This document shows positions 3,662 to 35,305 of a DNA stretch of 38,815 bases, in pieces. The translations under genes were made by a program, and so were the position numbers. Position 1 is the first letter of the stretch, and every line of letters begins with the position of its first letter. Source of the DNA: a virus; the UHGV virus genome UHGV-0040013; one strand, given 5' to 3'. The notes beneath the pieces are model-generated. The model was not told the origin of the DNA, did not search any database, and saw nothing but the letters and a program-made list of their open reading frames with translations.

Positions 3662-3994
3662 TTAGTCGTTTTGCCGGGTATATCGCTGCCTTAAAAACGC
3701 GAGATAAGAGCGAGCCTCAGCCTGAGCATCCGGCGGAAGCTCCATAAATTCTTTTGCTACTTTGTAGACCTCATCGGGTACTCCGGTGAGGTTTTCTTTT
3801 TTGTCGTCGCTGTCATCGATCAAGTAATCGACGGATACGCCAAAAAAGTCGGCAATCATTTTCCAGATTTTCATTCCTGGATCGTACTTCCCTGTCTCGT
3901 ATCCGGAGATTGCTGCCTGTGATAAATTCAGCGCCTCCGCCAGTTCTTTTTGATTCAGCCCCTTGCTCAAACGGACTTGCTTCAGACGATTCAT
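3662..3994 (-). CDS. CI-like phage repressor, XRE-family HTH
   Basis: ATG 3994 with GAGGTGAGGG SD; HTH LSKGLNQKELAEALNLSQAAISGYETGK; divergent from Cro-like gene across operator region. Confidence 0.85.
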   Translation of the reverse strand: MNRLKQVRLSKGLNQKELAEALNLSQAAISGYETGKYDPGMKIWKMIADFFGVSVDYLIDDSDDKKENLTGVPDEVYKVAKEFMELPPDAQAEARSYLAFLRQRYTRQND

Positions 3995-4029
3995 GGCCCT
4001 CACCTCGTTTATATTATATCAGCCTTTTT

Positions 4030-4148: not shown

Positions 4149-4361
4149 GTGATTAACATTAACGGTATCAAATCCAAGCGTGTCGAAGCGGGCCTGTCGC
4201 AAAAGCAGCTCGCAGAGATCATGGGCGTCACACAGGCGGCCATTGCGAATTGGGAGACCGGCGGCGTGTATCCGCGCGCCTCGCAGCTCCCGGCGCTGGC
4301 CGAGGCGCTGAACTGCACCATCGATGATCTTTACAACGGCGGAAAGGAGGCGGGCGGATGA
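4149..4361 (+). CDS. Cro-like XRE-family HTH regulator
   Basis: HTH KRVEAGLSQKQLAEIMGVTQAAIANWETG; first in-frame start is GTG 4149 directly abutting AGAAGG, so exact start uncertain (non-canonical start possible). Confidence 0.7.
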   Translation: MININGIKSKRVEAGLSQKQLAEIMGVTQAAIANWETGGVYPRASQLPALAEALNCTIDDLYNGGKEAGG

Positions 4362-4918: not shown

Positions 4919-5365
4919 ATGCAGGAAGCATACATCAATATCTGCGCGGGGTGTCGAAAAAAGGCACATAAGACGCAGGAGCAGTGGGCAGAAGTGCTGC
5001 GCGTGTCGGTCGAAACAGTCAAGGCCTGGGAAGGCAATCACCGTATCCCGGACAACTATCATGTCTGCCTGATGGTCAATGCCTGCGGCGATACCTGGTT
5101 CGCGTACAAGCACCTTTTGCAGATCTCAGATAGCCTGAACGTGCTGCCGGATATGAAGCGTCAGCCGCTTCCGTTGGCCGTGATCCAGCTGGTCAACCGC
5201 ATCATCGGCTTTGCCGACCGGAACCGCGACAAGGAGCTGCTGCGCATCGCCGAGGACGGAGTGATCGACACCGCCGAGCGGCCAGCCTACGACCAGATTG
5301 TGAACGAGCTGAACGACATCATCGCGGCGGCCTACACGCTGCGCTATGCGGAGGATTCGGAATGA
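4919..5365 (+). CDS. HTH-domain protein (XRE-like N-terminus), hypothetical early regulator
   Basis: AAAGGAGTGAGAAA SD; HTH-like AHKTQEQWAEVLRVSVETVKAWEG. Confidence 0.6.
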   Translation: MQEAYINICAGCRKKAHKTQEQWAEVLRVSVETVKAWEGNHRIPDNYHVCLMVNACGDTWFAYKHLLQISDSLNVLPDMKRQPLPLAVIQLVNRIIGFADRNRDKELLRIAEDGVIDTAERPAYDQIVNELNDIIAAAYTLRYAEDSE

Positions 5366-5495
5366 AAAGGGCAGAAAAAAAGAGCCGCCCGGCTGCTGCG
5401 AACAACCGAGCGACTGCGTATCCCGTGAACGAGACACCTGTAAGCATCTTCAGTATATCATCAGAATGTTTGTTTTGCAAGGGGGTGAATCGATT

Positions 5496-6269
5496 TTGAG
5501 CGAAGATTTTCGCGCCTTTTGGTCGGTCATCCCGGCCACGGTGCTGGATGATATGTCCATCCCGGCCAATGCGAAGATCCTCTATGGGGTGCTGTCGTCG
5601 CTGATGCGGCGCGAGGGTTATTGCTGGCCCAGCAATGCGCAGCTTGCCGAGGCGATGCACTGCTCCGAGGACGTGGTCAAACGATGGGTGTCGGCGCTGG
5701 CCGAGGCCGGACACATCCGCGTCCGCATCGAGCCAAACCGCAAGGTCGGCGGAAAGATCCGCTACATCTCGCCAGTGCTGGCAGAGCCGTCCATCACGCC
5801 CTCGCAGGATGGGTACGGGGACGAATGTCCCGGTACGTACGGGGATAAACTTCCCCGGGTAGGGGGACAAACTTCCCCGTCTATATATAAGGATGGATAT
5901 AAAAAAGAGAATAAAAAGAAAAAGGAAAAAGAAAAGCCGCAATCGGCTGACGCCGTTGCGTCCGCGCTTCTGTACAAATGCGAGCTGCACGGTCAGCCGC
6001 TGGTGGATGCCATGCAGCGGTTTTTGCAGATGCGCGTTGAGATCAAAAAGCCGGTCAAGTCCATGCAGGCTGCTGCCATGCTTTGGAACAAGCTCGTCAA
6101 GCTGTCTGCCGGAGACCCGGATTACATGGTCGCCCTGCTGGATAAGGCGACCGAGCGGCAATGGCTGAGTTTGTTCCCGCTGAAGGACGACGAGCTGCCG
6201 CAGAACCGGCAGGCTGTCCCGGCTGATAATGCCGGGCGCGTGGATCTCAGCGGCGTGGAGTTCGTGTGA
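5496..6269 (+). CDS. replisome organizer / DnaD-like replication initiator (N-terminal winged-helix, Lys-rich linker, C-terminal DnaD-like domain)
   Basis: Start assigned to TTG 5496 preceded by AAGGGGGTGA (longest ORF from 5346 has no SD); N-terminal ...AKILYGVLSSLMRREGYCWPSNAQLAEAMHCSEDVVKRWVSALAEAGHI...; 1-nt overlap (TGATG) with DnaB gene. Confidence 0.7.
   Translation: MSEDFRAFWSVIPATVLDDMSIPANAKILYGVLSSLMRREGYCWPSNAQLAEAMHCSEDVVKRWVSALAEAGHIRVRIEPNRKVGGKIRYISPVLAEPSITPSQDGYGDECPGTYGDKLPRVGGQTSPSIYKDGYKKENKKKKEKEKPQSADAVASALLYKCELHGQPLVDAMQRFLQMRVEIKKPVKSMQAAAMLWNKLVKLSAGDPDYMVALLDKATERQWLSLFPLKDDELPQNRQAVPADNAGRVDLSGVEFV
5811..5938. promoter_or_regulatory. Candidate origin of replication inside the initiator gene: three GTA(C/G)GGGGA iterons (5813, 5837, 5859; 22-24 bp spacing), two GGGGA(T/C)AAACTTCCCC mini-palindromes (5841-5856, 5863-5878), then an A-rich tract (5881-5938)
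   Basis: Read directly from sequence; iterons plus adjacent AT/A-rich region within the initiator ORF is the lambda-O-type ori architecture. Confidence 0.45.
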
Positions 6270-7636
6270 TGGCCAGCAAGCAAGACGCGCTGATCAGCGC
6301 ACAGACTTCCGTCCTCGGCTCGATGATCATCGATTCGCGCTGCGTCCCCGTCGTGATGGAGACGATCAAGGAGGACTATTTTACGGTCGGCCAGTATCGG
6401 ACGATCTTCAATGCGATCCGTGCGCTGGCTGGCGAGGGACGTCCGATCGATGCCGTGACGGTGCTCGACCGGGCCGGAAAAGCCTACGCCGACCTGATCG
6501 GCCAGATCATCACGGTTACACCGACCGCCGCCAATGTCCGCGAGTATTGCCGTATCCTGCGGAGCGAGGCCCGCTTGCAGCTGCTCAAGGACGCAGCCGG
6601 CGCAATGCTCGACGCGGAGGACGAAGACGAGATCCGCACGGCGCTGGATCAGGTCAACCGCATCATGGTCGACAAGCCTGGCATCCGAGCCATGAATATG
6701 GCGCAGGCCCTGGAAGATTTCTACCGGCGGCACGATCCATCCGTCAAGCCGGACTTCCTGCCGTGGAAGTTTGCCAAGCTCAACAAGTACCTTCGGACGG
6801 AGCCGGGAGACCTCATCTACATCGGCGGCTATCCCTCGGACGGCAAGACCACGCTGGCTCTGCACACGGCCCGAGAGCAGGCAAAAACCAAAAAGGTCGG
6901 GTTCTTCAGCTATGAAACAAACTGTGGGAAGCTGGCAGACGCGATGGTCTGCGCTGCCGCGCAGATCGGCCTGCCAACCATCCAACTCAACAAACTCGGC
7001 GAAAACGAGTGGGACGAACTGGCCTACATTTCTTCGGATTTCACGGGGCGCAACCTCGACATCATTGAGGCCGCGGGCATGACGGTCACGGACATCCGTC
7101 TCTACACCATGGCGCACCACTACGACGTGATCTACATCGACTATGTCCAGCTCATCCCGGCCAGCGGGAAAAGCCGCTGGGAACAGGAGGATTTCCAGCG
7201 GGTCAGCGCCAACAGCCGCGCGCTCAAACTCTTCGGCCTCCAGTGCGGTGTAACGATCGTGGCACTCAGTCAGATGGCGAGGCCGCAGCGCAACAAGGAC
7301 GGCATGATCCCGCCTCCGACAATGTCCAGCCTCCGCAGCACCGGCCAGATTGAGCAGGATGCGGACGCCGTCTTGCTGATGTTCCGCGAGGATCAAAAGG
7401 CAAAGGATGCCGACCGCATCATCACCTTCGGCAAGATCAAGACCGGCGCGGCCGGCGGCTCTTTCAAGCTCCACTTTGACGGTGAGATGCAGACGTTCAG
7501 CGACAAGCCGAACGAGCGCAAGACGCGCCGCGAAGAGGTGCAGCAACAGACAAAAATGCAGGAATTCCGGGAACTTCCCAAAAGCGAACCGCTCCCGGAT
7601 GATTTCCCGTTTGAACGAAAGGAAGATAACACATGA
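6266..7636 (+). CDS. dnaB: replicative DNA helicase, DnaB family
   Basis: 456 aa; N-terminal DnaB-type domain, Walker A GGYPSDGKTTLAL, conserved IDYVQLI and RecA-like C-terminus; ATG at 6269 (GTG 6266 in track). Confidence 0.9.
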   Translation: MMASKQDALISAQTSVLGSMIIDSRCVPVVMETIKEDYFTVGQYRTIFNAIRALAGEGRPIDAVTVLDRAGKAYADLIGQIITVTPTAANVREYCRILRSEARLQLLKDAAGAMLDAEDEDEIRTALDQVNRIMVDKPGIRAMNMAQALEDFYRRHDPSVKPDFLPWKFAKLNKYLRTEPGDLIYIGGYPSDGKTTLALHTAREQAKTKKVGFFSYETNCGKLADAMVCAAAQIGLPTIQLNKLGENEWDELAYISSDFTGRNLDIIEAAGMTVTDIRLYTMAHHYDVIYIDYVQLIPASGKSRWEQEDFQRVSANSRALKLFGLQCGVTIVALSQMARPQRNKDGMIPPPTMSSLRSTGQIEQDADAVLLMFREDQKAKDADRIITFGKIKTGAAGGSFKLHFDGEMQTFSDKPNERKTRREEVQQQTKMQEFRELPKSEPLPDDFPFERKEDNT

Positions 7637-8448
7637 AAGCAATCGCAATTCTAAATTTGAAAGGCGGTGTCGGAAAGACCGTCACTGCCGTCAACATGGC
7701 CCACATCCTGGCCGCCGATCACAAACAGCGTGTGCTCCTGGCTGACTGCGACAGCCAGTGCAACGCGACGGAGTTCTTCGGTGTGCGGCCCGGAATTGGA
7801 ACGGTCACGCTGGCCGACATTCTGCGCGGCGACTTCGAACCGTACGTCTCGGAGCTGGTCACCGGAACGGATTATCCTGGCGTCGATGTGATCCCCGGCT
7901 CCGATGAGCTAATGGACATGGATATGTCCCAAATCACCAGCCAGCGCGTCAACGGCCGTGTCCTTGCGGATCTGTGCTGCACAATCGGTGAGGATGACGA
8001 GTACGACTACGTCCTGTTTGACTGCCCGCCAGCCTTTAATGCAGCGAGCGCCGCGGCGCTGCTGGCTGCGGATGAGGTCATCATCCCGATCAAGCTCGAC
8101 GCCTTTTCCATCCGAGGGCTGGCCAATGTCAGCCGCCAGATCGACAACATGCAGCGTATCAACCCAAAGATCCGCGTTGCCGGGGCGCTCATCACCATGT
8201 GGCGCAACGTACCCGTCGTGCTGGAGGCCGAGGGCAGTCTCCGCGACTGCGGCCTGCTGCCGGTATTTCAGACGGTCATTCGCCGCACCGACAAGGTCGA
8301 CGAGATGACCTTCGAGCGCAAGCCCATCGCCATCTATTCCCCGCGCAGCGCCGCTGGCTATGATTACCGTAGCTTTGTGCAGGAGTACTTGGAGCCGCCC
8401 GTCACAATGGACGATATGCTGAGAGGAGGCGTTGACCGTGCCGTTTGA
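7633..8448 (+). CDS. parA: ParA/Soj-family partition ATPase
   Basis: Deviant Walker A KGGVGKT at N-terminus (MKAIAILNLKGGVGKTVTAVN), typical ParA length 271 aa. Confidence 0.9.
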   Translation: MKAIAILNLKGGVGKTVTAVNMAHILAADHKQRVLLADCDSQCNATEFFGVRPGIGTVTLADILRGDFEPYVSELVTGTDYPGVDVIPGSDELMDMDMSQITSQRVNGRVLADLCCTIGEDDEYDYVLFDCPPAFNAASAAALLAADEVIIPIKLDAFSIRGLANVSRQIDNMQRINPKIRVAGALITMWRNVPVVLEAEGSLRDCGLLPVFQTVIRRTDKVDEMTFERKPIAIYSPRSAAGYDYRSFVQEYLEPPVTMDDMLRGGVDRAV

Positions 8449-9520
8449 TGTGAGCCGTATTTTGCAGGACGCCGCACCTGCACCGAAAGATATGACGCTG
8501 CCGGAAACAGGGCCGCGGACGGCAGAGACCATCGGCAGCGAGATCCGCTATCTGTCCCATCAGGCCAAGTGCATGACGGTCTGGTTCGGAGTGGAGATCG
8601 GCAAGCGCCTTGCCGAGGCAAAGGCTATGGTCGGACACGGCGGATGGCTCGATTTTCTGAAAAACGAAACGGAGTTTTCAAAATCTTCCGCTGCGAGATT
8701 TATGCAGATTGCCAAGGAATATGGCAATAATTCAAATTTCCCAACGTTGGGAAATTTGAGCGTGTCGAACGCTTTACAGCTGCTCGCGGTGCCCGCCGAA
8801 GAGCGCGAAGAGTTCGCCGAGGCGGTCGATGCGGAGAATCTTTCCGCCCGCGAGCTGGAACAGGCTATCCGGGAGCGCGACGAGGCACGGAAGCAGCTGG
8901 AGGCCGAGCGCGCGGCCAGTGAGGGCACGGCGCTGAAACTGGCCAACATCACCTCCGCCCTCGATGCGGAGAAGGAAAAGACAGCAGCACTTCGGGAGCG
9001 CACCGACGCGCAGGCCGCGAAGATCACGGAACTGGAAAACCGACCGGTCGAGGTCGCCGTGCAGGCGGCAGACCCGGCGGAGATCGAAAAGGCTGTTGCG
9101 GATGCGCTGGCCGAGGCGGAGAAAAAGCACAAGGCCGACGTCGCTGCGCTGGAAAAGCGCCGCAAGGAGGCCGAGAAGAAGCAGGCGGAGCTTCAGGCCG
9201 AAGCTGCGAAGGCCATGGCCGACCTGAAAAACAGCACAGGCCGCGCCGATGAGCTGAAGCACCGCGTCGAGACGCTTCAGTCCGAACTTGAAGCCGCAAA
9301 GGCAAACGCCGAGAAGCTTCAGAAGGTAGGGGTGATCCAGTCGGACGCGGACATTGCCGTCTTTCAGAGCTTCTTTCAGGCGGTGCAGGAAAACTTCAAC
9401 CGCGCCTGCGGCCTGATGCAGAAGGTCAAGACTCGCGACGCGGAGAAGGCCGCGAAGCTGGCCCGGTTCAGCCGGGACGCGCTGGCCAAGATGGCGGCGC
9501 TGGTCGAAAAGGAGGCGTGA
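8438..9520 (+). CDS. DUF3102-like N-terminal domain plus long Ala/Glu/Lys-rich coiled coil; probable ParB-like partner of ParA
   Basis: Start at GTG 8438 (GAGAGGAGG SD 8 nt upstream); N-terminal ...EIRYLSHQAKCMTVWFGVEIGKRLAEAKAMVGHGGWLDFLKNE... then about 200 aa of heptad-like AEKK repeats. Position immediately after parA. Confidence 0.65.
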   Translation: MPFDVSRILQDAAPAPKDMTLPETGPRTAETIGSEIRYLSHQAKCMTVWFGVEIGKRLAEAKAMVGHGGWLDFLKNETEFSKSSAARFMQIAKEYGNNSNFPTLGNLSVSNALQLLAVPAEEREEFAEAVDAENLSARELEQAIRERDEARKQLEAERAASEGTALKLANITSALDAEKEKTAALRERTDAQAAKITELENRPVEVAVQAADPAEIEKAVADALAEAEKKHKADVAALEKRRKEAEKKQAELQAEAAKAMADLKNSTGRADELKHRVETLQSELEAAKANAEKLQKVGVIQSDADIAVFQSFFQAVQENFNRACGLMQKVKTRDAEKAAKLARFSRDALAKMAALVEKEA

Positions 9521-9523
9521 CGG

Positions 9524-9847
9524 ATGGATGTGTTTGATAAGATCCGCGCGCAGCAGCCGGAGCAGCGCACGCCGGTCTGGATGGTCGGCGAACAGCTGGC
9601 CGACATCATCCGGCACGACCCCGCCGCGCAGGAGATCGTCAGCCGTGACCTCGATGCTGCGGGCATGAGCCTCGCTGACTGCGAGAAGAAGATCAAGGCA
9701 TTCGCCGATGCGCACAAAACCAGAAACTTTGCGTGCGTCATTCCGGCCGAAGCGGAAAAGATCATCCGCGAGTTTTACGGCATCGCCGAGCTTGGCGCGG
9801 CGTCCTCCGAGGAGGGCGTCGTGCTGAACCTCGAAGATTACTTCTGA
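9524..9847 (+). CDS. hypothetical protein, possibly PcfK-like (tentative)
   Basis: 107 aa, directly upstream of a large HCV-motif protein; pairing PcfK/PcfJ recalled from plasmid/phage annotations; assignment from memory only. Confidence 0.55.
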   Translation: MDVFDKIRAQQPEQRTPVWMVGEQLADIIRHDPAAQEIVSRDLDAAGMSLADCEKKIKAFADAHKTRNFACVIPAEAEKIIREFYGIAELGAASSEEGVVLNLEDYF

Positions 9848-9858
9848 GGAGGCGCGGC

Positions 9859-11682
9859 ATGGATATTTTAGAGGATCTGGTGAGCCGGCTTCCCACAAAA
9901 CCACGCGACGGGATGCTTCAGGCTGTGGCATCTGACTACATCGACAGTGACCTTGGCGGCGAGCTGCTGATTTACGCCCGCGAATCGTATTACCCGGATG
10001 AGGATGCTCCTCAATGGTGGTCCGACGAACCCGCGCGAGGCCGCTGGGGTGCAAGATGCACTTGCACGGCCTGCTGCGAGGACTTCTGGGCCGGATGGAT
10101 CAAGGGCGGCGGCGTGGCGATGGTCGTCGGAGACGACGGAAGTGCGTGGCCGGGCATCCCGGACAAAGAAAGCGCGGATGTGGTTGGCTGGACGGACGAA
10201 CACGACAATCTCTACTGCCCGATGTGCGGCGCCTCCGTGCATCCGGTGCATCGGAAGAAACTGCGCAACGGACGCACCTATCAGCTGATGACCGGCAGCA
10301 TCGAGCGCGTCGGAGATCTCGCAGTCGCCATGAGCTGGATCGTGTCCCGGCGCGTTGATGAGTTCGGGCTGTGGGACATGGACGTCCGGCCATTTGGCGC
10401 GATGGTGCTGCTGCCCAATGGCCACATGAAGCGGTACATGCACGAAACGGTCAACGCCTCCGGCGGCATGAACAGCCTGCCGGACTGGCGGCCGGTCAAC
10501 AGCCGGGATGACCCGTATCAGATCAAGTATTACAGTCACGAGGCTACAAACTCGCGCAAATTTGGTGTTGTGATGTGGCGCGACCTGCCGGAGCTGACTG
10601 GATCGACCGCCGAAAAAACGGGGTTGGCCGAATACATCCGCGCAGGCGGTGATTGGCCTGTCGTGTATCTGGAACTCTGGAAGAAGCGCCCGGCTGTCGA
10701 GAATCTGATGAAATGCGGCATGGCCCGCATGATCGTCGGGCGGATCGACGACTGCGTCAACTGGGCCGCGAACTACGGGTTCCGCAAGACGACCGTGGAG
10801 GTCGGAGACCTTGCGGACTGGAACTTCAAAAAGCCGCGGGAGATGCTGCATTTCACAAAAGAAGAGGTCGCCGCCTGCGGCGGATGGCGCTGGACGGCAG
10901 ACATCGCCGCGCTCTGGATGGAGGGCGTCAACTTCGGCCTTTGGGGCACCGGGTGTGCGGGCGAGTTTGACCGGCTGCTCAAGAAGTTCGGGAAGGAGAA
11001 CATCAGCCGCTATGTGGGCGAGGACACGGACGGATACGACTTCGAACCGCTGCCGAAGTGGGAGGCATACCTCGAAAAGCAGCTTGAAAAGCACGGCCTT
11101 CCGCTCCGGAATGGTTTCGGCCTACTGATCGACTATCGCAAGGAGCTTGCCGAGCAGGTGGACGCTCCGGGGGCGGAGGAACTGTGGCCGCGCGACCTGC
11201 GCGCCGCGCATGACCGGATCTTCGCCGCGAAAAAACAGCGGGAGGACAAAGACAGCATCGCGAACTTCCTCGCGGTCGCAAAGAAGTGGGCGGCGCTGGA
11301 ATGGTCGGACGGAGAGATCTGCATCCGGCTTCCGCGCTGCAACGGCGATCTGGTGCGCGAGGGACACTTCCTGCACCACTGCGTCGGCGGCTACGGCAAG
11401 CAGCACCTGACCGGCAATCTGATTTTGTTTGTGCGCCATGCACGCCGGCCGGAACGGAGCTGGTTCACCCTCAACATCAGTGTCACAAAAGACAAGCCGA
11501 CGCGAATTCAGCTCCACGGTTACGGCAACGAGTGGGCGCACGGCGAGCGTCTGACCATCCCACAGCGGGTGCTGGACTTCGTCGACCGCTGGGAGACGGA
11601 GATCCTGCTCCCGGCCTTCCGGCAGGTCAAGGCTGCAGAGCTGGCCGCGAAGCCGGTTGGACGGAAGCGGGGTGCGGCATGA
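9859..11682 (+). CDS. large hypothetical protein, probably PcfJ-like (C-terminal HCV motif: HFLHHCVGGYGKQH)
   Basis: ATG 9859 with GAGGAGG SD (longest ORF from 9733 lacks SD); 607 aa; conserved-looking HCV motif near C-terminus as in PcfJ-like family (recalled, not searched). Confidence 0.65.
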   Translation: MDILEDLVSRLPTKPRDGMLQAVASDYIDSDLGGELLIYARESYYPDEDAPQWWSDEPARGRWGARCTCTACCEDFWAGWIKGGGVAMVVGDDGSAWPGIPDKESADVVGWTDEHDNLYCPMCGASVHPVHRKKLRNGRTYQLMTGSIERVGDLAVAMSWIVSRRVDEFGLWDMDVRPFGAMVLLPNGHMKRYMHETVNASGGMNSLPDWRPVNSRDDPYQIKYYSHEATNSRKFGVVMWRDLPELTGSTAEKTGLAEYIRAGGDWPVVYLELWKKRPAVENLMKCGMARMIVGRIDDCVNWAANYGFRKTTVEVGDLADWNFKKPREMLHFTKEEVAACGGWRWTADIAALWMEGVNFGLWGTGCAGEFDRLLKKFGKENISRYVGEDTDGYDFEPLPKWEAYLEKQLEKHGLPLRNGFGLLIDYRKELAEQVDAPGAEELWPRDLRAAHDRIFAAKKQREDKDSIANFLAVAKKWAALEWSDGEICIRLPRCNGDLVREGHFLHHCVGGYGKQHLTGNLILFVRHARRPERSWFTLNISVTKDKPTRIQLHGYGNEWAHGERLTIPQRVLDFVDRWETEILLPAFRQVKAAELAAKPVGRKRGAA

Positions 11683-13155: not shown

Positions 13156-13372
13156 GAGCATAACCAAAGCCCAACGGGCGGAACTCGAAGAAGCCTGCAC
13201 GTTTGGCGTTGAAGATGCACACGACCTGCTCCGGAAATACACCGGAATTGAGGCTAGGCCATACACCGCATACTTGTACTACGACGAGAACGGGGACTTT
13301 GTCGGTTCCAGTGACAATAATGGACTGAACGATCTTCTGGAAGAAGCAAATGTGGAGGTGCGGGATGGATAA
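13148..13372 (+). CDS. hypothetical protein (74 aa)
   Basis: Overlaps previous stop; SD GGAGGGCAAGAAGG. Confidence 0.5.
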   Translation: MNRSITKAQRAELEEACTFGVEDAHDLLRKYTGIEARPYTAYLYYDENGDFVGSSDNNGLNDLLEEANVEVRDG

Positions 13373-13805
13373 GTTAAAGCCGTGCCCGTTTTGCGGCGGC
13401 ACAAAACTCAAAATAGAACGAAAGTCGCGGCTTGCCGGGTGGAATGGTCTTGATATGCGCGTAGAAATGCACACCTATTCTGTCCGATGCAACACCTGCC
13501 ACGCGCGTGGAGGCGCTATTGGTGGTCGTGTTATGAATGATCCGTGGACACGCTGCTCTCAGCTTCCAGACTGGGCTACGACGGACAAAACTCTAGAAGC
13601 AAAAGCCGCCGATGCATGGAACAGGAGGGTAAATGATGCGCCGGTGCGGCATGGACACTGGATTAAAGATGACTTTTTCTCTGATGAGGTAAACAACGGT
13701 GAAAAATGCAGTCAGTGCGGCGAACTGATTGGATGGTTCGGAAATCTACCGAAATATTGCCCCGGATGCGGCGCTCTGATGGATGGAGGGAAAGAAAATG
13801 GATGA
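13365..13805 (+). CDS. Lar-family restriction-alleviation-like zinc-ribbon protein (extended, second C-terminal Zn-ribbon)
   Basis: GGAGGTG SD; N-terminus MDKLKPCPFCGG...C..C matches the Lar-family KPCPFCG signature; C-terminal CSQCG...CPGCG. Confidence 0.55.
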   Translation: MDKLKPCPFCGGTKLKIERKSRLAGWNGLDMRVEMHTYSVRCNTCHARGGAIGGRVMNDPWTRCSQLPDWATTDKTLEAKAADAWNRRVNDAPVRHGHWIKDDFFSDEVNNGEKCSQCGELIGWFGNLPKYCPGCGALMDGGKENG

Positions 13806-14082
13806 CGAATATATCCGGCGCGAGGATGCGCTGCGCGCCGTGCAAAGGCAAAGAGGCGCGAACAGAAGCCCTGCGCAAAATGAAATGCTCAACAGAATTA
13901 AGACTGATATAATTCGTGCGCCAGCCGCCGACGTTGCGCCGGTGGTGCGCTGCAAGGACTGCGAGCATGCGCGTGATCTCGGTTTTCAATTCGGCAGTCT
14001 GGTGCATGAGTCGTGGTTTTGCATATACAATGGGCCTCACACCACAGGCGCAAATGATTTTTGCAGCCACGGGCAAAAATGA
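13798..14082 (+). CDS. hypothetical protein (94 aa) with CxxC...C..H cluster
   Basis: GGAGGGAAAGAAA SD; VVRCKDCEHARD...FCSHG. Confidence 0.5.
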   Translation: MDDEYIRREDALRAVQRQRGANRSPAQNEMLNRIKTDIIRAPAADVAPVVRCKDCEHARDLGFQFGSLVHESWFCIYNGPHTTGANDFCSHGQK

Positions 14083-14101
14083 GAGGAAGGAGAAATTGAA
14101 G

Positions 14102-14269
14102 ATGATCCTTGATATTTTGAATCTGCTGGCGCTGATCGAATGGATCGCGCTGGGCATTGTTGTTTGGCTCAAGGCGCGGAGCCTGTATCGCCGCTCGAAA
14201 GCGGTGCTGGACGCGCTGCAATCGGAAGAAACGGAGGTTTATGAAAATGACGCGGAAACGCTGCTGTAA
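14102..14269 (+). CDS. small membrane protein (55 aa)
   Basis: GAGGAAGGAGAAA SD; TM helix LNLLALIEWIALGIVVWL. Confidence 0.4.
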   Translation: MILDILNLLALIEWIALGIVVWLKARSLYRRSKAVLDALQSEETEVYENDAETLL

Positions 14270-14468
14270 ATTGCTGATGGCCTGCGGAGCCACCAGGAAC
14301 GAAGCAAACCAAGCTATGCGCTTTGCACACAAAGTGTACAATTGCACAAACTACGAATGTCTCTACCTCGCATTGAAGCCGCTGCTGTACTTGCAAACCC
14401 TTCGCAACCGACCTGGCGTTCCCAACACAGTTCTTAAAGCATTTGGTATCAATCCGGACGAATTATAA
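14241..14468 (+). CDS. hypothetical protein (75 aa)
   Basis: ACGGAGG SD, ATG 14241. Confidence 0.45.
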   Translation: MKMTRKRCCKLLMACGATRNEANQAMRFAHKVYNCTNYECLYLALKPLLYLQTLRNRPGVPNTVLKAFGINPDEL

Positions 14469-14589
14469 ATGATTTGGACTTTTGCCCGCGCGGGATGCCA
14501 TTGCCGTGGCGGGGAGGATCAGCCGGATGATATAGCCAGCCCGGATCTCCGGGCTGGCACACAAAGAAAGGGATGATAACATCAGTCGA

Positions 14590-15300
14590 GTGATAGAGCT
14601 TCAGGCCGGGACGCGGTTCCGAGCCATTGAGCTGGCCGCGGCTCCGCAGCAAAAGCGGACGCGGGCGTCGCGGCAATTTGAGACGAGCCTTGTACGGGAA
14701 GCCGTGAACATTAAGACCGCCTGCATGCGGTTGGAATTTCTGCTTTATGCAAACTTTGCACTGGATGATTGGTTCGTGACACTGACCTATGACGAGGATT
14801 TTCTTCCACCGAACTATGAGACGGCCCGGAAGAATCAGCCGGCCTACTTCCGCAGGCTGCGGCAGGCGCGCCGGGCAGAAGATCTTCCATTTGATTATGT
14901 GTACGTTATGGAGGGCCTGCACGGCGACCATCGCATTCATCACCATTTCGTTACCAAGCGTGCACCGGGCAACGACATCGCCCTATTCCGTGAACTGTGG
15001 GGCAAGGGCTTTGTCGATGTGCAGACCATTGAGGAGTTCGGCGGCTATCGCGCCGTCGCGCAGTACATGACCAAGGAGCCGCGCAAAACCGGCAAACTCC
15101 GGGTCGGCGCTCGGATGTGGACACCAAGTATCGGGCTGGTACAGCCGGAGCGGCACGACATCGAGCTTGCACCGGGCGAGCACTACTCGCCGCCGCCGGG
15201 CGCTTCGGCCTTCGAGGGTGGAAAGTTCCCGGAACGTATCGAAAACTGTTACGGAACCTTTGTGACCTACGATTTCGAAATCCCGGCTTTACAAACTTAA
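14590..15300 (+). CDS. rep: HUH-superfamily rolling-circle replication initiator, Rep_1 (pC194/pUB110)-like
   Basis: All three RCR motifs in order: motif I FVTLTYDEDF, motif II (HUH) HGDHRIHHHFVT, motif III AQYMTKEPRK (catalytic Tyr-x-x-Lys); 236 aa matches Rep_1 size. Start GTG 14590 uncertain. Confidence 0.6.
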   Translation: MIELQAGTRFRAIELAAAPQQKRTRASRQFETSLVREAVNIKTACMRLEFLLYANFALDDWFVTLTYDEDFLPPNYETARKNQPAYFRRLRQARRAEDLPFDYVYVMEGLHGDHRIHHHFVTKRAPGNDIALFRELWGKGFVDVQTIEEFGGYRAVAQYMTKEPRKTGKLRVGARMWTPSIGLVQPERHDIELAPGEHYSPPPGASAFEGGKFPERIENCYGTFVTYDFEIPALQT

Positions 15301-15315
15301 TATCTATATTTTGAC

Positions 15316-15564
15316 TTGAAACAATATATAAATACTGGGAAGGAGCGACAAAAGGACTTGCAATCTGAGAAACGGCGTGATATACTGTTAGTGTCAGCAG
15401 ACGGGAAGTTGATTTGCCCGTTGTGCGGGCGGCCGACGCAGCAGCGTGTGCGGCCGACGACCGTGCTGACAGACTTCCCGCTGTACTGCAAGCTGTGCAA
15501 GCGAGAGTCGATCGTTAATATGAGCCAGAGCCAAAACCATCGAGTTAGTGCCAGCGCCAAATGA
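15316..15564 (+). CDS. small zinc-ribbon protein (start uncertain; may begin at internal TTG about 15406)
   Basis: C-terminal LICPLCGRP...YCKLCKRES; a strong internal promoter-like TTGCAA-17-TG-TATACT (15356-15387) lies inside the longest ORF, suggesting the real gene is the C-terminal about 50 aa. Confidence 0.35.
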   Translation: MKQYINTGKERQKDLQSEKRRDILLVSADGKLICPLCGRPTQQRVRPTTVLTDFPLYCKLCKRESIVNMSQSQNHRVSASAK

Positions 15565-15606
15565 TTTGACCGTGAAAACGGAGAATCGTTTGGCGCTTTT
15601 GTTTTG
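15553..15606 (+). terminator. Rho-independent terminator 1 (stem AGCGCCAAA/TTTGGCGCT with structured loop, then TTTTGTTTTG)
   Basis: Inverted repeat read from sequence followed by T-run. Confidence 0.45.
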
Positions 15607-15632
15607 CACCCGAGGTGATAGCCGGATGGCAC

Positions 15633-15676
15633 GAGCGCCATGATCTCCGTCGTGAGGTCATGGCGCTTTTTGTTTG
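15633..15676 (+). terminator. Rho-independent terminator 2 (13-bp stem GCGCCATGATCTC/GAGGTCATGGCGC, loop CGTCGT, then TTTTTGTTTG)
   Basis: Near-perfect 13-bp inverted repeat plus T-run; shares the motif TGGCGCTTTT(T)GTTT with terminator 1 (direct repeat 15590-15606 / 15660-15676). Confidence 0.7.
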
Positions 15677-15679
15677 TCC

Positions 15680-15973
15680 ATGGATTACAAAAGCAAACGC
15701 TGGTTGCACCTGCGCGACGCGGTGCTCCGGCGTGACAAGTACCGATGCCGAGAGGCCGCAAGGTTCGGCAGGAACGAGCTGGCGACCGTTGCCCACCACG
15801 TCTACCCGGTGGAAGATTTCCCAGGCTGGCAATGGTGCGGCTGGAATCTGATCGCGGTGAGTCAGGCAGCGCACAACAGCTTCCATGACCGCGCGACCGG
15901 CAAGCTGACCGATCGCGGCCTCGCGTGGCAGCGGCGAGTGATCCCCCCTCCCGATGCGCCGCCACCATTCTGA
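15680..15973 (+). CDS. HNH endonuclease (phage packaging-associated)
   Basis: CREAARFGRNELATVAHHVYPVEDF...NLIAVSQAAHNSFH: HNH motif with flanking Cys/His; positioned immediately upstream of terminase as in cos-type HK97-like phages. Confidence 0.8.
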   Translation: MDYKSKRWLHLRDAVLRRDKYRCREAARFGRNELATVAHHVYPVEDFPGWQWCGWNLIAVSQAAHNSFHDRATGKLTDRGLAWQRRVIPPPDAPPPF

Positions 15974-16079
15974 CAAAAGCACCGGAGTGGGCCCCCTTTT
16001 CCGACGGCGGGAAAACGGGCGGAGGGGGTAAGCGAGGAGGCCCGAGGCGCGCGGGTGCGCGCGAAAAAAGAATCATGCG

Positions 16080-18365
16080 GTGCGGGCGCAAACGACGCGC
16101 CTGCGCGAAGTGCCGGAGGCTGTGCCAGGCGACAGCGACATTGGGAACGCCGCCATTGCCTTCTCAGATCCTCCTAACTGGGCCCGGAGCCGCCGGGCCT
16201 GGCAGAGTCTCCGGCATGTGGGAGGTGAGCACTTGGCCAGAGAGGACATGATCCGAAAGGACATGGAACTGGTCGGAACCTACAACGAGATATTCGAGCC
16301 GACGATCAAGCAGCTGGCCAAGACGGAACGCGAACTCTCCCGCGCAGAGAAAGAGTGGAAGAAGCAGGGCGGACAACGGATCTGCACCATGGTCAACAAG
16401 ACCGGTGCAGAGTACACGGCCAAAAGCCCATACTGGACGGCGGTCGAAGATCTGCGCGCGACGGTGCAGTCGCTCCGCAATCAGCTCGGTCTGACACCGA
16501 CGGGCCTGAATAAGGCCAGGTCGAAGCTCCAGCCGGCCGCGGCCGGAAACAGCAAGATCGAGCAGCTGCTCGCGGCGGCACACGACCACGCCGTTCAGCA
16601 GGGCGCACAGTATCAGCGAGACGTTGACACCTTTGTCGAGTCGGTGCTCTCTGGGGAGTCCGGGCTGTGCGAAGACGTTGTCCTGTCCTGCAAACGGTAT
16701 GTCGCGGATCTTGGTTCCGGCAAGTGGGATTTCCGCGCGGAGCCGGCCAACGACATCATCGCAATCATCGAGACGATGTTCTGCCACCAGCAGGGGGAAT
16801 TCCTCGATGCGACGCCGCTGCGCGGTACTCCCTTCCTGCTTCTCCCCTATCACAAGTTTATTGTCTACAACCTGATGGGTTTTTATCTACCGGATACAAA
16901 GATCCGGCGCTTCAAGGAAGCTGTGGACTTTATCCCCCGCAAAAACGTCAAGACGACCTTCGCGGCCTCTCTGGCCGGAGCGCTAGCCATGTATGAGCGT
17001 GCCTCCGGCTCTAAAGTCTATGAGGTTGGCGGCGCCTTGAAACAGGCGCTCGAAGGTTTTGACTTTCTCAAATACAACTTCAACCGCCTCGGCGTAACAG
17101 TCCGGGACGATCCAAACCAGGGGCTGCGTATCATCGACAACAACATGGAGCGGTCCATTTCCGGTGACATTGGTGACGGCATGATCTCGATCAACGCCCT
17201 TGCCGCGAACCCCGACAAGCAGGACTCCTTCAACTGCAACATCGTCATCGCCGACGAAGCTCACACCTACAAGAGTCCACAACAGTACCAGATTCTGAAG
17301 GACGCGACCAAGGCTTACACCAACAAATTGGTCATCATCATCTCCTCCAACGGCCCCAATGCCCGCGGCTTTTTGCTCGGCCACTTGGACTATTGCCGGA
17401 AGATCTTGCGCGGGACCGTCACCGGCAACGCGGCAGACAGCATCTTCTGCTTCCTCTGCTCCGCGCCGACACTGGAAAACGGCGACGTTGACCTGCATGA
17501 TCCGGCTGTGCTGAAAGCAGCCTCGCCGGGCTGGGGCTACTCCATCCGCCCGCAGGACATGATCAACGACGCAGCCATGGCCGCCGAAAACCCGGCGCTC
17601 CGGCCAGAGTTCCTCAATAAATCGCTGAACGTCACAACGAACGCGATCAAGGCATGGTTTGACATTCAAGAGTTCCGCAAGAGCGACGAACGATACAGTT
17701 GGAGCTATCGGCAGCTTGCGAAACTGCCCATCCGCTGGTACGGCGGCACGGACCTTTCGAAGCTGCATGACCTGACGGCCGGCTGCCTCTTCGGCCACTA
17801 CAAAGGCGTAGACATCATCATTCCGCACGCATGGTTTCCACGGCCGGCCGCCATCGTCAAGGCGCAGCAGGATCAAATTCCACTGTTCGGCTGGCAAGAG
17901 GATGGCTGGCTGGACATGACCAACGACAAGGTCACAAATCACCATGATGTGGTGCAATGGTACAAAAAACTGCGCGCCGATGGGTTTAAGATCCGCCGCA
18001 TCGGCCACGACCGGAAATTCTGCCGCGAGTATTTCGTGGAGATGCAGAAGGAACGCTTCCCAATCAAGGATCAGCCGCAGCTGTTCACACGGAAGTCCGA
18101 GGGTTTTCGCTATCTGGAGGCCAGCGCCAAGAAAGGAACGCTCTACTACATGCACGCGGAGCCGTACGAATACTGCGTACAGAACGTTGCCGGCATTGAG
18201 AAGGCTGACGACATGGTCATGTATCAAAAAATCGAGCCAAACCTCCGCATCGACCTTTTTGATGCCTCGGTGTTCGCGGTTTGCGCTTATCTCGAAGATC
18301 TGACCGCCAGCAATAAGGCGGCAGGCTGGTATGACAAGAAAGACAAGGACGGTGATGCAGATTGA
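16080..18365 (+). CDS. terminase: P27-family small-subunit-like N-terminal region (about 175 aa) fused in frame to terminase large subunit (ATPase + nuclease)
   Basis: N-terminal region ends with P27-TerS-like ...KSPYWTAVEDLRATVQSLRNQLGLTPTGLNKARSKL; continues without stop into TerL-like region (VLSCKRYVADL..., Walker-like, ...VIADEAHTY..., C-terminal nuclease ...FDASVF). Start (GTG 16080 or downstream ATG 16248) uncertain. Confidence 0.75.
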   Translation: MRAQTTRLREVPEAVPGDSDIGNAAIAFSDPPNWARSRRAWQSLRHVGGEHLAREDMIRKDMELVGTYNEIFEPTIKQLAKTERELSRAEKEWKKQGGQRICTMVNKTGAEYTAKSPYWTAVEDLRATVQSLRNQLGLTPTGLNKARSKLQPAAAGNSKIEQLLAAAHDHAVQQGAQYQRDVDTFVESVLSGESGLCEDVVLSCKRYVADLGSGKWDFRAEPANDIIAIIETMFCHQQGEFLDATPLRGTPFLLLPYHKFIVYNLMGFYLPDTKIRRFKEAVDFIPRKNVKTTFAASLAGALAMYERASGSKVYEVGGALKQALEGFDFLKYNFNRLGVTVRDDPNQGLRIIDNNMERSISGDIGDGMISINALAANPDKQDSFNCNIVIADEAHTYKSPQQYQILKDATKAYTNKLVIIISSNGPNARGFLLGHLDYCRKILRGTVTGNAADSIFCFLCSAPTLENGDVDLHDPAVLKAASPGWGYSIRPQDMINDAAMAAENPALRPEFLNKSLNVTTNAIKAWFDIQEFRKSDERYSWSYRQLAKLPIRWYGGTDLSKLHDLTAGCLFGHYKGVDIIIPHAWFPRPAAIVKAQQDQIPLFGWQEDGWLDMTNDKVTNHHDVVQWYKKLRADGFKIRRIGHDRKFCREYFVEMQKERFPIKDQPQLFTRKSEGFRYLEASAKKGTLYYMHAEPYEYCVQNVAGIEKADDMVMYQKIEPNLRIDLFDASVFAVCAYLEDLTASNKAAGWYDKKDKDGDAD

Positions 18366-34326: not shown

Positions 34327-34644
34327 ATGGACTACACAGAAATCATTTCGGCGATGATTGCGCTGATCTCGGCGCTGGTATCGGCATTTTTGATCCCGTG
34401 GATCAAGGAGCGCGTCGGCGCGGACAAGCTCAAAAAGTGGCAGGCCTATGTGGAGATCGCGGTCAAGGCGGCGGAGCAGCTCTACAATGCCAACGAGGGC
34501 GCGGAGAAAAAGGCGTATGTGCTGCACTACCTCGCCGAGAGAGGCATCAAGTTTGATTCTGATACCGTGGATAAAATGATCGAGTCTGCGGTGCTGACGC
34601 TCCACCATGAGCTTTATGGAGGCAGCAATGGCACTGAAAATTAA
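34327..34644 (+). CDS. holin, LL-H family-like
   Basis: 105 aa, N-terminal TM then ...WQAYVEIAVKAAEQLYNANEG... resembling LL-H holins. Confidence 0.6.
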   Translation: MDYTEIISAMIALISALVSAFLIPWIKERVGADKLKKWQAYVEIAVKAAEQLYNANEGAEKKAYVLHYLAERGIKFDSDTVDKMIESAVLTLHHELYGGSNGTEN

Positions 34645-35305
34645 CGATACCATCCGGGCAACGAGAGTGGGCGGCAAGCGTCCGCTCTCGGCCATCCGGG
34701 CAATCGTGTTCCACTACACGGCCAATACCGGTCTGCATGCAACGGCGCTCGGGAACGCGCGGTATTTTGCAAACGGCTCCGAGGGGCGCGCTGCGTCGGC
34801 ACATTTCGTGGTAGATGAGGGCGATACCGTTTATCAGTGTGTGCCGCTGGACGTGGTTGCGTGGGCGGTTGGCGACGGCAGAAGCGGCAAATTCGGCAAG
34901 GTGTACGGCAACTACAACACCGTCAGTATCGAGATGGTGAGCCACACGGACGCTTCTGGCAAGTACTACATCCCGGAGGCGACGATGCGCAACGCCGCGC
35001 GGCTTTATCAAATGCTGCTGAAACAGCTTCCGAACGTGCAGGCCGCGATCCGGCACTATGACATTTCGATGAAGCTGTGTCCGCTGCCGCTGATTGACGA
35101 AAAGAAATGGGCGGGCTTTAAGAAACTCTTGGAGGAGGTGGACGAAGTGGTCACAAAGGCAAAGATGGTCGTTGACGGCAAGGAGATCGAGGTCGAGCGG
35201 ATTTTGAAGGACGGCACGAATTACGTCAAGGTGCGCGACCTCGCCGCCGCCCTCGGGCTCGATGTGAGCAATCAGGGCAATATCGCCGTGCTGACGCATA
35301 AGTAA
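34628..35305 (+). CDS. endolysin: N-acetylmuramoyl-L-alanine amidase (Amidase_2/PGRP) with C-terminal Cu-amine-oxidase-N-like wall-binding domain
   Basis: GGAGGCAGCA SD; ...AIVFHYTAN...HFVVDEGDTVYQCVPLDVVAWAVGDG... amidase_2 signature; C-terminal ...VDGKEIEVERILKDGTNYVKVRDLAAALGL.... Confidence 0.85.
   Translation: MALKINDTIRATRVGGKRPLSAIRAIVFHYTANTGLHATALGNARYFANGSEGRAASAHFVVDEGDTVYQCVPLDVVAWAVGDGRSGKFGKVYGNYNTVSIEMVSHTDASGKYYIPEATMRNAARLYQMLLKQLPNVQAAIRHYDISMKLCPLPLIDEKKWAGFKKLLEEVDEVVTKAKMVVDGKEIEVERILKDGTNYVKVRDLAAALGLDVSNQGNIAVLTHK

Follow-up and report, generated by a model that had tools for sequence, protein, structure and literature searches.

HUH endonucleases are the standard replication initiators of single-stranded DNA (ssDNA) phages, small plasmids, and P2-like myophages. 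In phage P2, the HUH protein gpA works with gpB and the helicase DnaB, and the replication protein (Rep) of plasmid pC194 (Tyr214, Glu210) nicks at CTTG|ATA. We analyzed 38,815 nucleotides (nt) of viral DNA, UHGV virus genome UHGV-0040013 (the whole stretch is hereafter called the window), in which the gene rep at 14590-15300 encodes a protein of this kind. Judging from its gene content, the window phage is a temperate cos siphophage of a lineage infecting gut Oscillospiraceae, and rep is a core gene of that lineage. A survey of HUH Reps among double-stranded DNA (dsDNA) viruses lists the Myoviridae, Corticoviridae, Rudiviridae, and Sphaerolipoviridae; siphophages are not named (PMC6668415).

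The Rep protein and its family

The open reading frame (ORF) at 14590-15300 is, by all sequence criteria that we applied, a genuine single-tyrosine HUH endonuclease of the PF23343/PHROG 3584 family, for which nicking activity is predicted. The original prediction of a rolling-circle-type HUH Rep stands: motifs I to III occur in order, and both families match. Motif I (FVTLTYDE) comprises residues 62-69, with FVTLTY at 62-67; motif II (HGDHRIHHHFV) comprises residues 111-121 and includes H117-H118-H119-F-V of the metal-ligand type; and motif III (YMTKE) comprises residues 159-163, with the catalytic Y159, K162, and E163. Across a 23-sequence alignment in which identity falls to 24%, F56, Y67, H119, Y159, and K162 are invariant, while L65, T66, and H117 are present in at least 90% of the sequences; H118 and E163 are additionally invariant in a 21-sequence set. 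The catalytic apparatus is therefore conserved, and the concern that the catalytic tyrosine might vary among homologues is dispelled by the invariance of Y159. It is a single tyrosine; the residue four positions after Y159 is an invariant Glu, not a Tyr. Motif II of the Rep of Flavonifractor phage Cormatin reads H-I-H.

The window Rep matches PF23343 (REP_ORF2-G2P) in Pfam at 5.8e-15, with 55.8 bits against a gathering cut-off of 27.8, and PHROG 3584 ("replication initiation protein") at 1.6e-43 over residues 7-189; PF23343 is matched by 21 of 21 homologues. The proposed membership in the pC194-like Rep_1 family (defined in PMC5714925) has to be abandoned in favor of PF23343. The profile searches thus recovered an HUH family, but neither Rep_1 (PF01446) nor Rep_trans, the two that had been named, matched the window Rep at E<=10, and neither matched any of the 21 homologues at E<=1. 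NCBIfam returned nothing for the window Rep, and Phage_GPA (PF05840), the family of P2 and phiX174 gpA with two active-site tyrosines three residues apart, did not match it, though two of the 21 homologues reached E 0.07. No relative was found in the PDB by sequence. An AlphaFold2 (AF2) model (pLDDT 83.9, pTM 0.82) gave top Foldseek matches in the PDB among which HUH Rep domains are prominent (SIRV1 ORF119, geminivirus WDV Rep, circovirus PCV2 Rep, pMV158 RepB), mixed with unrelated proteins and weak throughout (E 0.035-0.1, low TM-scores); the predicted fold appears HUH-like at these weak scores. Among close phage variants, the ratio pN/pS of rep is 0.00-0.06 at a pS of 0.13-0.31, a pattern of very strong purifying selection at the sequence level.

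The family is widely distributed. By tblastn, rep homologues occur in 90 phage records, most of them already annotated as "replication initiation protein." The tailed phages among them include Cormatin, Clostridium phages PhiS63 and phiSM101, Butyrivibrio phages Arawn and Idris, Faecalibacterium phages Toutatis and Lelie, Latilactobacillus phages, and phages of Terrisporobacter and C. scindens. VP4 of many gokushoviruses matches more weakly (tblastn E 5e-7 to 8e-4), and in three small Bacillus/Brevibacillus plasmids of 4.8-7.1 kb the homologue is the sole replication gene. A profile search of 1.84 billion representative proteins yielded 7,384 clusters at E<=1e-3, 2,340 at E<=1e-10 (a count that takes in plasmid and microvirus relatives), and 229 at E<=1e-30. 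In PhiS63 and Latilactobacillus phage TMW 1.1381 P1, Rep lies in the early region, with neither DnaB nor the small zinc-ribbon gene (KTR) that follows rep in the window, and is the only recognizable replication gene; a replicative function for the family is supported because the homologue is the sole visible replication protein there. A literature search found no experimental paper on the PF23343/PHROG 3584 Rep family, including its siphophage members. The window rep adds one more ordinary member to a large family that already carries annotation; the general principle, an HUH Rep encoded by a temperate tailed phage, is familiar from P2. One related locus (L079) carries a partial second rep copy (5507-5914) directly upstream of the full gene (6001-6642), a tandem duplication.

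The position of rep and a candidate origin

Annotation of the window ORFs (integrase, repressor, portal, capsid, tail, and terminase genes) describes a temperate tailed phage, the nearest genomic relatives of which are Oscillospiraceae metagenome-assembled genomes. Its principal genes are as follows.

878-1990, - strand: integrase (annotation)
3662-4003, - strand: repressor (annotation)
5346-6269, + strand: origin-binding initiator-like protein (Pfam HTH_36 and RP-C; PHROG "replication initiation O-like" and "DnaD-like helicase loader")
6266-7636, + strand: DnaB-type helicase (Pfam DnaB and DnaB_C, the N- and C-terminal domains)
7633-11682: ParA, DUF3102, and PcfJ (annotation)
13350-13805: Lar (annotation)
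14590-15300, + strand: rep, 236-aa HUH endonuclease ORF with a GTG start
15391-15564, + strand: KTR, small Cys-rich zinc-ribbon protein (Pfam Cys_rich_KTR, PF14205, 5e-15)
15680-15973, + strand: HNH endonuclease (PHROG HNH families)
16080-18365, + strand: terminase, a fusion of the small (TerS) and large (TerL) subunits (Pfam Terminase_4 plus TerL ATPase and nuclease domains)
18362 onward: portal, capsid, and tail genes (annotation)
34607-35305: amidase (annotation)

The second replication module that had been proposed for this phage is confirmed by Pfam and PHROG in the initiator-like and DnaB-type genes at 5346-6269 and 6266-7636. The ParA, DUF3102, and PcfJ-like early genes are typical of Firmicute conjugative plasmids and integrative and conjugative elements, despite the phage integrase, and they are also present in Cormatin and many relatives. 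A repeat search of the window found no convincing att repeats at the prophage ends.

We compared gene order across 79 viral and 20 genomic loci, all retrieved via Rep. The order Rep-KTR-(HNH)-terminase is kept in ~40 diverged loci at Rep identities down to ~35%, and Rep-KTR persists where the terminase is of a different type (21-26% identity). In most loci tblastn places KTR immediately 3' of rep, and a Cys-rich zinc-ribbon ORF was seen there by eye in several others; the induced phage Cormatin has initiator, DnaB, and ParA, followed further on by Rep, a small zinc-ribbon ORF, HNH, TerS, and TerL. rep is single copy in the window, and we found no repeats flanking Rep-KTR, no terminal repeats, and no target duplications. 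Single copy number, fixed order, and the lack of flanking repeats do not fit a satellite or transposon. Read from these loci, Rep-KTR is a fixed pair upstream of HNH-terminase in many Oscillospiraceae phages rather than a hitchhiker. The comparison with related phages that had been suggested as a check accordingly speaks against the proposed hitchhiking plasmid or satellite module: rep is syntenic, fixed, and strongly constrained across the phage lineage.

Divergence is unevenly distributed around the gene. In loci L003-L024, where the Rep proteins are 97-100% identical, synonymous sites of rep differ by 13-31%, while the flanks (14468-14589 and 15300-15680, holding the upstream element, the KTR gene, and the T1/T2 region described below) differ by <=2.5%. 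Either this is a mosaic region, or nucleotide-level constraint acts on the flanks.

A conserved DNA motif accompanies rep. In the window it takes this form:

15307-15343, + strand: motif A, AT-rich, TTTTGACTTGAAACAATATATAAATACTGGGAAGG, directly 3' of the rep stop codon, with CTTG at 15315-15318, ten bases, and TAAATAC at 15329-15335

CTTG, ten bases, TAAC or TAAA, then T and T or A follows rep in nearly every Oscillospiraceae locus. When both strands of 450 kb were searched with an nhmmer profile built from 13 instances, 22 matches reached E<0.1; all share the strand of rep and lie 0-400 nt 3' of the gene. The exact string CTTG-N10-TAACTTA occurs eight times in 2.17 Mb, each time on the strand of a rep homologue and between -300 and +500 nt from it; the calculated chance expectation is ~1 overall and ~0.03 near rep. 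In phage Arawn and a Latilactobacillus phage, the exact motif lies 5' of rep, as do looser versions in PhiS63, Toutatis, and the three small plasmids. Motif A is thus locked to rep in strand and position down to ~30% Rep identity, whether 3' or 5' of the gene. Among close relatives, 15300-15359 contains a single polymorphic site.

The window reads CTTGAAA at 15315-15321, and relatives L051 and Arawn read CTTGATA. Motif A begins with CTTGA, as does the 30-bp phiX174 origin, CAACTTG|ATATTAATAAC, which we read in NC_001422 as CAACTTG|ATATTAATAACACTATAGACCAC, annotated at 4306. Folding found no stable hairpin in motif A (z = 0.07). A short stem around CTTGAAA was considered and rejected, as the stems, of 3-6 bp, do not keep a common register and the region lacks a stable fold. 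From this strand- and position-locked conservation we regard motif A as a candidate double-strand origin (dso), a judgment that we hold to be about evenly balanced. If phiX174 and pC194 are a guide, Rep would nick between G15318 and A15319. The earlier idea of a CTTGATA-like origin may hold, but at the other end of rep.

Two side observations concern this region. In loci L213 (4930-5100), L211 (4930-5060), and L074 (5200-5370), motif A follows KTR and its terminator T1, and then comes a second promoter, after which a short stretch repeats the AGAGCC-rich 3' end of KTR; it may be a small RNA or attenuator. The 1789-bp plasmid pRGI01306 (L229), which encodes a distant Rep homologue, carries CACATTTGATATTATAGC (1612-1640) directly after its rep stop codon and shares the 9-mer TTGATATTA with the phiX174 origin.

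We modestly favor, by analogy with P2, an overall picture in which Rep is responsible for a late phase of rolling-circle (sigma) replication, with the O-like initiator and DnaB acting beside it. Rep would nick the + strand at motif A (CTTG|A, ~15318/15319) and become covalently joined to it via Y159, and the free 3'-OH would prime sigma synthesis rightward through cos. The resulting concatemers would be cut and packaged by HNH and terminase. The O-like initiator and DnaB would serve early theta replication, lagging-strand helicase loading, or both, and the element upstream of rep would act as a leader RNA controlling rep expression or, less likely, as a single-strand (lagging-strand) origin. 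Family membership and conservation are established from the alignments and profiles; the rolling-circle mechanism we infer.

Several points weigh against this picture. The act of nicking by Rep, the nick position, and its timing are all deduced. nhmmer gave no link between motif A and the phiX174 origin, and its link to the motif of distant phages and plasmids is weak (L051 and L052 at E 4-5, in the right place). Motif A is absent from two more distant small plasmids, save for TTTGATATTA after rep of pRGI01306. The invariant GATAT of the upstream element itself resembles the TTGATAT of phiX174 and pRGI01306, and a nick at that place keeps a small probability. A conserved sigma-70 promoter always follows motif A at ~25-40 nt in Oscillospiraceae phages, and this adjacency makes a promoter-regulatory role a live alternative. 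Finally, GBSV1, Ruminococcus gnavus (R. gnavus) phages, and Javan phages, which have related HNH and terminase genes, are absent among the Rep matches listed, so Rep probably does not answer a general need of the related packaging type.

The structured element upstream of rep

Folding and covariation delineate an element of four helices in front of rep.

14446-14558, + strand: four-helix element, ~113 nt (folding, covariation)
14446-14451 with 14528-14533: helix P0a (GUAUCA / UGAUAU)
14453-14457 with 14523-14527: helix P0b
14485-14493 with 14504-14513: hairpin P1, with an invariant TGCCAT in its loop
14535-14544 with 14549-14558: hairpin P2, the hairpin noted originally
14475-14479 and 14511-14515: invariant unpaired blocks TGGAC and GGGGA
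14566-14578, + strand: Shine-Dalgarno (SD)-like stretch of rep, GAAAGGGATGATA, read from sequence; its position matches AAGGAGG or GGAGGTGAT in other clades

The small features first described in this spacer are all real, and several gain a new context. The 10-bp palindrome CCCGCGCGGG is present at 14485-14494 but is better read as the 5' arm of P1, pairing with 14504-14513. The hairpin placed at 14536-14557 is one pair longer, 14535-14558, with arms (14535-14545 and 14548-14558) that are 100% complementary. Both copies of the octamer GGATGATA exist, the second at 14571-14578 as described and the first at 14525-14532, one base from the position originally given. The octamer occurs four times in the window against 0.77 expected from shuffles, none of 100 of which reaches four. 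Its first copy is the 3' arm of the long-range helix P0 (partner 14446-14457), and its second lies inside the SD region of rep.

The predicted RNA minimum free energy of the element is -66 kcal/mol (z = -4.55). Three clades, with Reps 100%, 44%, and 36% identical to that of the window, fold independently into a common architecture while their stem sequences differ. In a covariance-model alignment, which is fitted to the model and so favors the structure, 92.8% of cells are paired, against 25-47% with slid partners, and 24 of 30 pairs vary on both sides. Together, the invariance of the Rep motifs among homologues and the covariation of the hairpin across three diverged clades place the protein and hairpin features beyond chance. 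On the + strand, G.T cells outnumber A.C cells by 12 to 2, indicating that the element folds on that strand. Its region shows 0-3 differences per 122 nt among near-identical phages in which synonymous sites of rep differ by 13-31%. Within 13800-16300, Rfam 15 gave only two chance-level hits at E<=10, neither within the element.

The element is restricted in its distribution. The two Rep clades closest to the window (78% and 71% identity) lack it: there rep comes right after the upstream gene, and Rep is intact. Covariance models R1 and R2, run on 56-63 diverse loci, found no diverged copy in other clades, and a "GATAT plus hairpin" descriptor found nothing equivalent in loci lacking the element. 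When viral contigs were scanned with a loose DNA pattern, 120 stretches came up, most of them by chance, and the true copies all came from the same three Rep clades. In L054-type loci, an extra ORF stands between the element and rep, and the element retains an SD and start codon. A promoter scan found no promoter in the spacer upstream of rep. A sigma-70 candidate there (TTGGAC-16-TGCCAT) was set aside; its spacing is constant but its consensus poor, and a start at that point would halve P1. An antisense RNA in the leader was likewise discarded, as the - strand hairpins have no following U-tract and no antisense promoter or terminator is visible.

These patterns suggest that the element is a separate, dispensable, strand-specific cis element, most likely a leader RNA controlling rep expression, which we rate roughly level with all else it might be. 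Further observations touch the same interval. In the clade with 44%-identical Rep, the rep start in L037 and L047 (~5990-6000) is apparently ATC, 7-8 nt after a perfect GGAGGTGAT, and public annotation there extends the ORF ~100 codons farther upstream, across the structured element. In L215 (~3800-4000, a prophage of Butyricicoccus pullicaecorum DSM 23266) and L224, a consensus promoter upstream of rep is followed by a hairpin and then by an intrinsic terminator; next come the palindrome GTGTCCAAATTGGACAC, an SD, and rep itself. The order recalls lambda pR'-tR', and TTGGAC is common to this palindrome and the invariant block of the window element.

Single-strand origin (sso) cassettes of rolling-circle plasmids are interchangeable and prime lagging-strand synthesis; those of the ssoA type are marked by extensive folding of one strand and by the conserved loop sequences RSB and CS-6. 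The element could be such an sso, or a helicase-loading signal on the displaced + strand that primes the lagging strand, and this would be compatible with the replication scheme that we favor. Folding specific to the + strand, a modular distribution (present in some clades, absent in close relatives), conserved bases in unpaired loops, and a location upstream of the candidate dso, such that it would be displaced last, are all as expected. However, upon gene insertion the element stays with an SD and the first start codon, which points to a role in the 5' untranslated region, and lagging-strand priming could draw on the DnaB and loader that the phage itself encodes; we therefore consider the sso possible but doubtful. 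A bolder version strikes us as unlikely. In it, the element would represent a structured cis-acting RNA of a new class, or else an sso of a new type, gating an HUH nickase at the head of the packaging operon; the nickase, cutting at the CTTG motif past the end of its own gene, would then be the long-sought dedicated theta-to-sigma trigger in a lambda-style cos siphophage, with KTR as its cofactor or as a late regulator.

A different explanation assigns the Rep nickase to the processing of packaging DNA together with HNH and terminase, to triggering recombination-dependent replication, or to attacking rolling-circle plasmids and microviruses. The strict synteny with packaging genes even as the terminase type changes, and a complete initiator and DnaB module already in place, would suit such roles, but no candidate initiator other than the homologue is present in PhiS63, the Latilactobacillus phages, or the small plasmids, and there it is located away from packaging genes, no Rep is among the matches listed for related terminase/HNH systems, and a conserved cognate DNA motif travels with rep. 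We think this explanation quite unlikely.

The original prediction placed a possible dso in the 120-bp spacer; developed further, it would have Rep nick at TG|ATA (14527-14532) beside the P2 hairpin. GATAT is invariant in all three element-carrying clades, L047 reads TTTGATATAG where pRGI01306 has TTTGATATTA directly after rep and phiX174 has CTTGATATTA, and the hairpins fold on the nicked-strand side. The element is probably not the dso, however, because it is missing from the 78% and 71% clades, which keep an intact, constrained Rep. Moreover, GATAT forms the 3' arm of helix P0a, pairing with GUAUC at 14446-14451, any of the four bases (T, C, G, or A) can precede the G, a gene can sit between element and rep with the element keeping its own SD, and searches of more distant Rep loci turned up no trace of the element. 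A dso in the spacer is accordingly improbable.

Least probable is a reading of Rep-KTR as selfish DNA carried within the phage, whether an IS91/Helitron-like rolling-circle cassette, a satellite, or an integrated plasmid: its own upstream element, internal promoter, and terminator after KTR, the synonymous divergence of rep in excess of its flanks, and the relatives on small plasmids might hint at this, but the pair is single copy, holds a fixed position and orientation in ~40 diverged phages while diverging with its neighbor genes, shows no terminal repeats or target duplications, has one catalytic Tyr rather than the Y2 arrangement of IS91/Helitron transposases, and in Oscillospiraceae loci never lies outside a phage context.

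Neighboring signals and known systems

Between rep and the terminase gene lies a compact series of expression signals.

15358-15386, + strand: sigma-70-type promoter TTGCAA-17-TGaTATACT (promoter scan: 9/12 matches plus extended -10)
15554-15596, + strand: T1, hairpin and T-tract, terminator-like
15612-15619, + strand: perfect SD GAGGTGAT, between T1 and T2
15626-15643, + strand: 5-codon mini-ORF ATG GCA CGA GCG CCA TGA, between T1 and T2
15633-15668, + strand: T2, hairpin and T-tract (terminator scan)

The KTR promoter holds a constant place in nearly all Rep-KTR loci, and its arrangement (window 15358-15394) is conserved in distant relatives (L001, L074, L211, L213). The KTR start is probably GTG 15391, only a few bases past the -10 box, which suggests a leaderless or near-leaderless mRNA. 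A literature search found no functional work on KTR. T1 and the SD are conserved in all Rep-KTR loci, and T2 is found only in the closer clades; distant loci keep only T1, the SD, and the HNH ATG. The mini-ORF stop codon lies within the 5' arm of T2, and the HNH ATG follows the U-tract without an SD of its own. The layout looks like regulated read-through into the late genes. We also tried the T1 tail and GAGGTGATAGCC as a second nick site and rejected it, as GGAGGTGAT is simply a perfect SD sequence.

Twenty-seven of the 79 related viral contigs (IMG/VR, ~36-38 kb) stop at 550-870 nt 3' of rep, close to or slightly beyond the 3' end of HNH; L003, L008, L010, L011, L015, L022, L025, L053, and others end there, corresponding to window ~15850-16080. 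These ends place cos between HNH and terminase, probably at ~15975-16079, and by this reading Rep-KTR-HNH would form the right end of virion DNA. The terminase ORF is a single frame of 761 aa in which Terminase_4 (residues 60-143) is joined to the TerL ATPase and nuclease domains; in R. gnavus phages, the small and large subunits are separate genes. A consensus promoter stands directly in front of rep in L051, L215, and L218, followed after rep in L051 by KTR, TerS, TerL, and portal. Rep thus seems to head, or to gate, the packaging/late unit, and both its place beside the packaging genes and these promoters speak for late timing.

In these gut Clostridia phages, Rep sits at a fixed place near the packaging genes alongside a complete initiator and DnaB set. 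If Rep drives late rolling-circle synthesis, it would offer such phages a simple, testable mechanism for making concatemers; if it is an ordinary early initiator, the annotation is routine. Cormatin, in a cultivable host, provides an experimental handle, and the CTTG-N10-TAACTTA motif and the four-helix element are concrete targets.

Among known systems, the PHROG 3584 tailed phages (Cormatin, PhiS63/phiSM101, Arawn, Toutatis, and Latilactobacillus phages) share the family, at only 26-37% identity to the window Rep; the PhiS63 and Latilactobacillus phages differ from the window in their early-region Rep without KTR or DnaB. P2 and 186 offer a functional parallel, as temperate tailed cos phages with an HUH nickase (gpA) dependent on a DnaB-type helicase and loader. 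The window Rep differs from gpA in its Pfam family (not Phage_GPA), in its much smaller size of 236 aa, and in having one Tyr, and the window phage differs in its Clostridia host, siphophage-type structural genes, separate O-like initiator, KTR partner, and rep near the terminase. HUH Reps are on record in the Myoviridae (PMC6668415).

With the Microviridae, the window Rep shares direct similarity to gokushovirus VP4 (at the E values given above) and the same motif order, and the candidate origin, like that of phiX174, starts CTTGA and is AT-rich and unstructured. The genome is, however, that of a 35-kb integrase-bearing dsDNA tailed phage rather than a 4-6 kb ssDNA virus, and phiX174 gpA has two Tyr where the window Rep has one, with an invariant Glu at +4; the likeness of the origins is without statistical support. 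The pC194/pUB110 Rep_1 proteins are likewise small HUH Reps in which a conserved Glu lies near the one catalytic Tyr, and the candidate nick motif of the window is of the CTTG type as well, but the window Rep and its 21 homologues, having no PF01446 match, are not members. IS91/Helitron-type proteins are set apart by the single Tyr, single copy, fixed synteny, and lack of flanking repeats of the window rep.

The rep leaders and sso regions of rolling-circle plasmids and the gene II leader of Ff phages offer a possible analogy to the strand-specific fold upstream of rep; the window element differs from them in having no Rfam match and no visible antisense promoter or terminator. To our knowledge, the four-helix architecture with its invariant TGGAC, TGCCAT, and GGGGA blocks has no described counterpart. 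Three by-products of the analysis deserve a further look: the fixed Rep-KTR pair, the CTTG-N10-TAACTTA motif that runs through the family, and the hitherto undescribed element.

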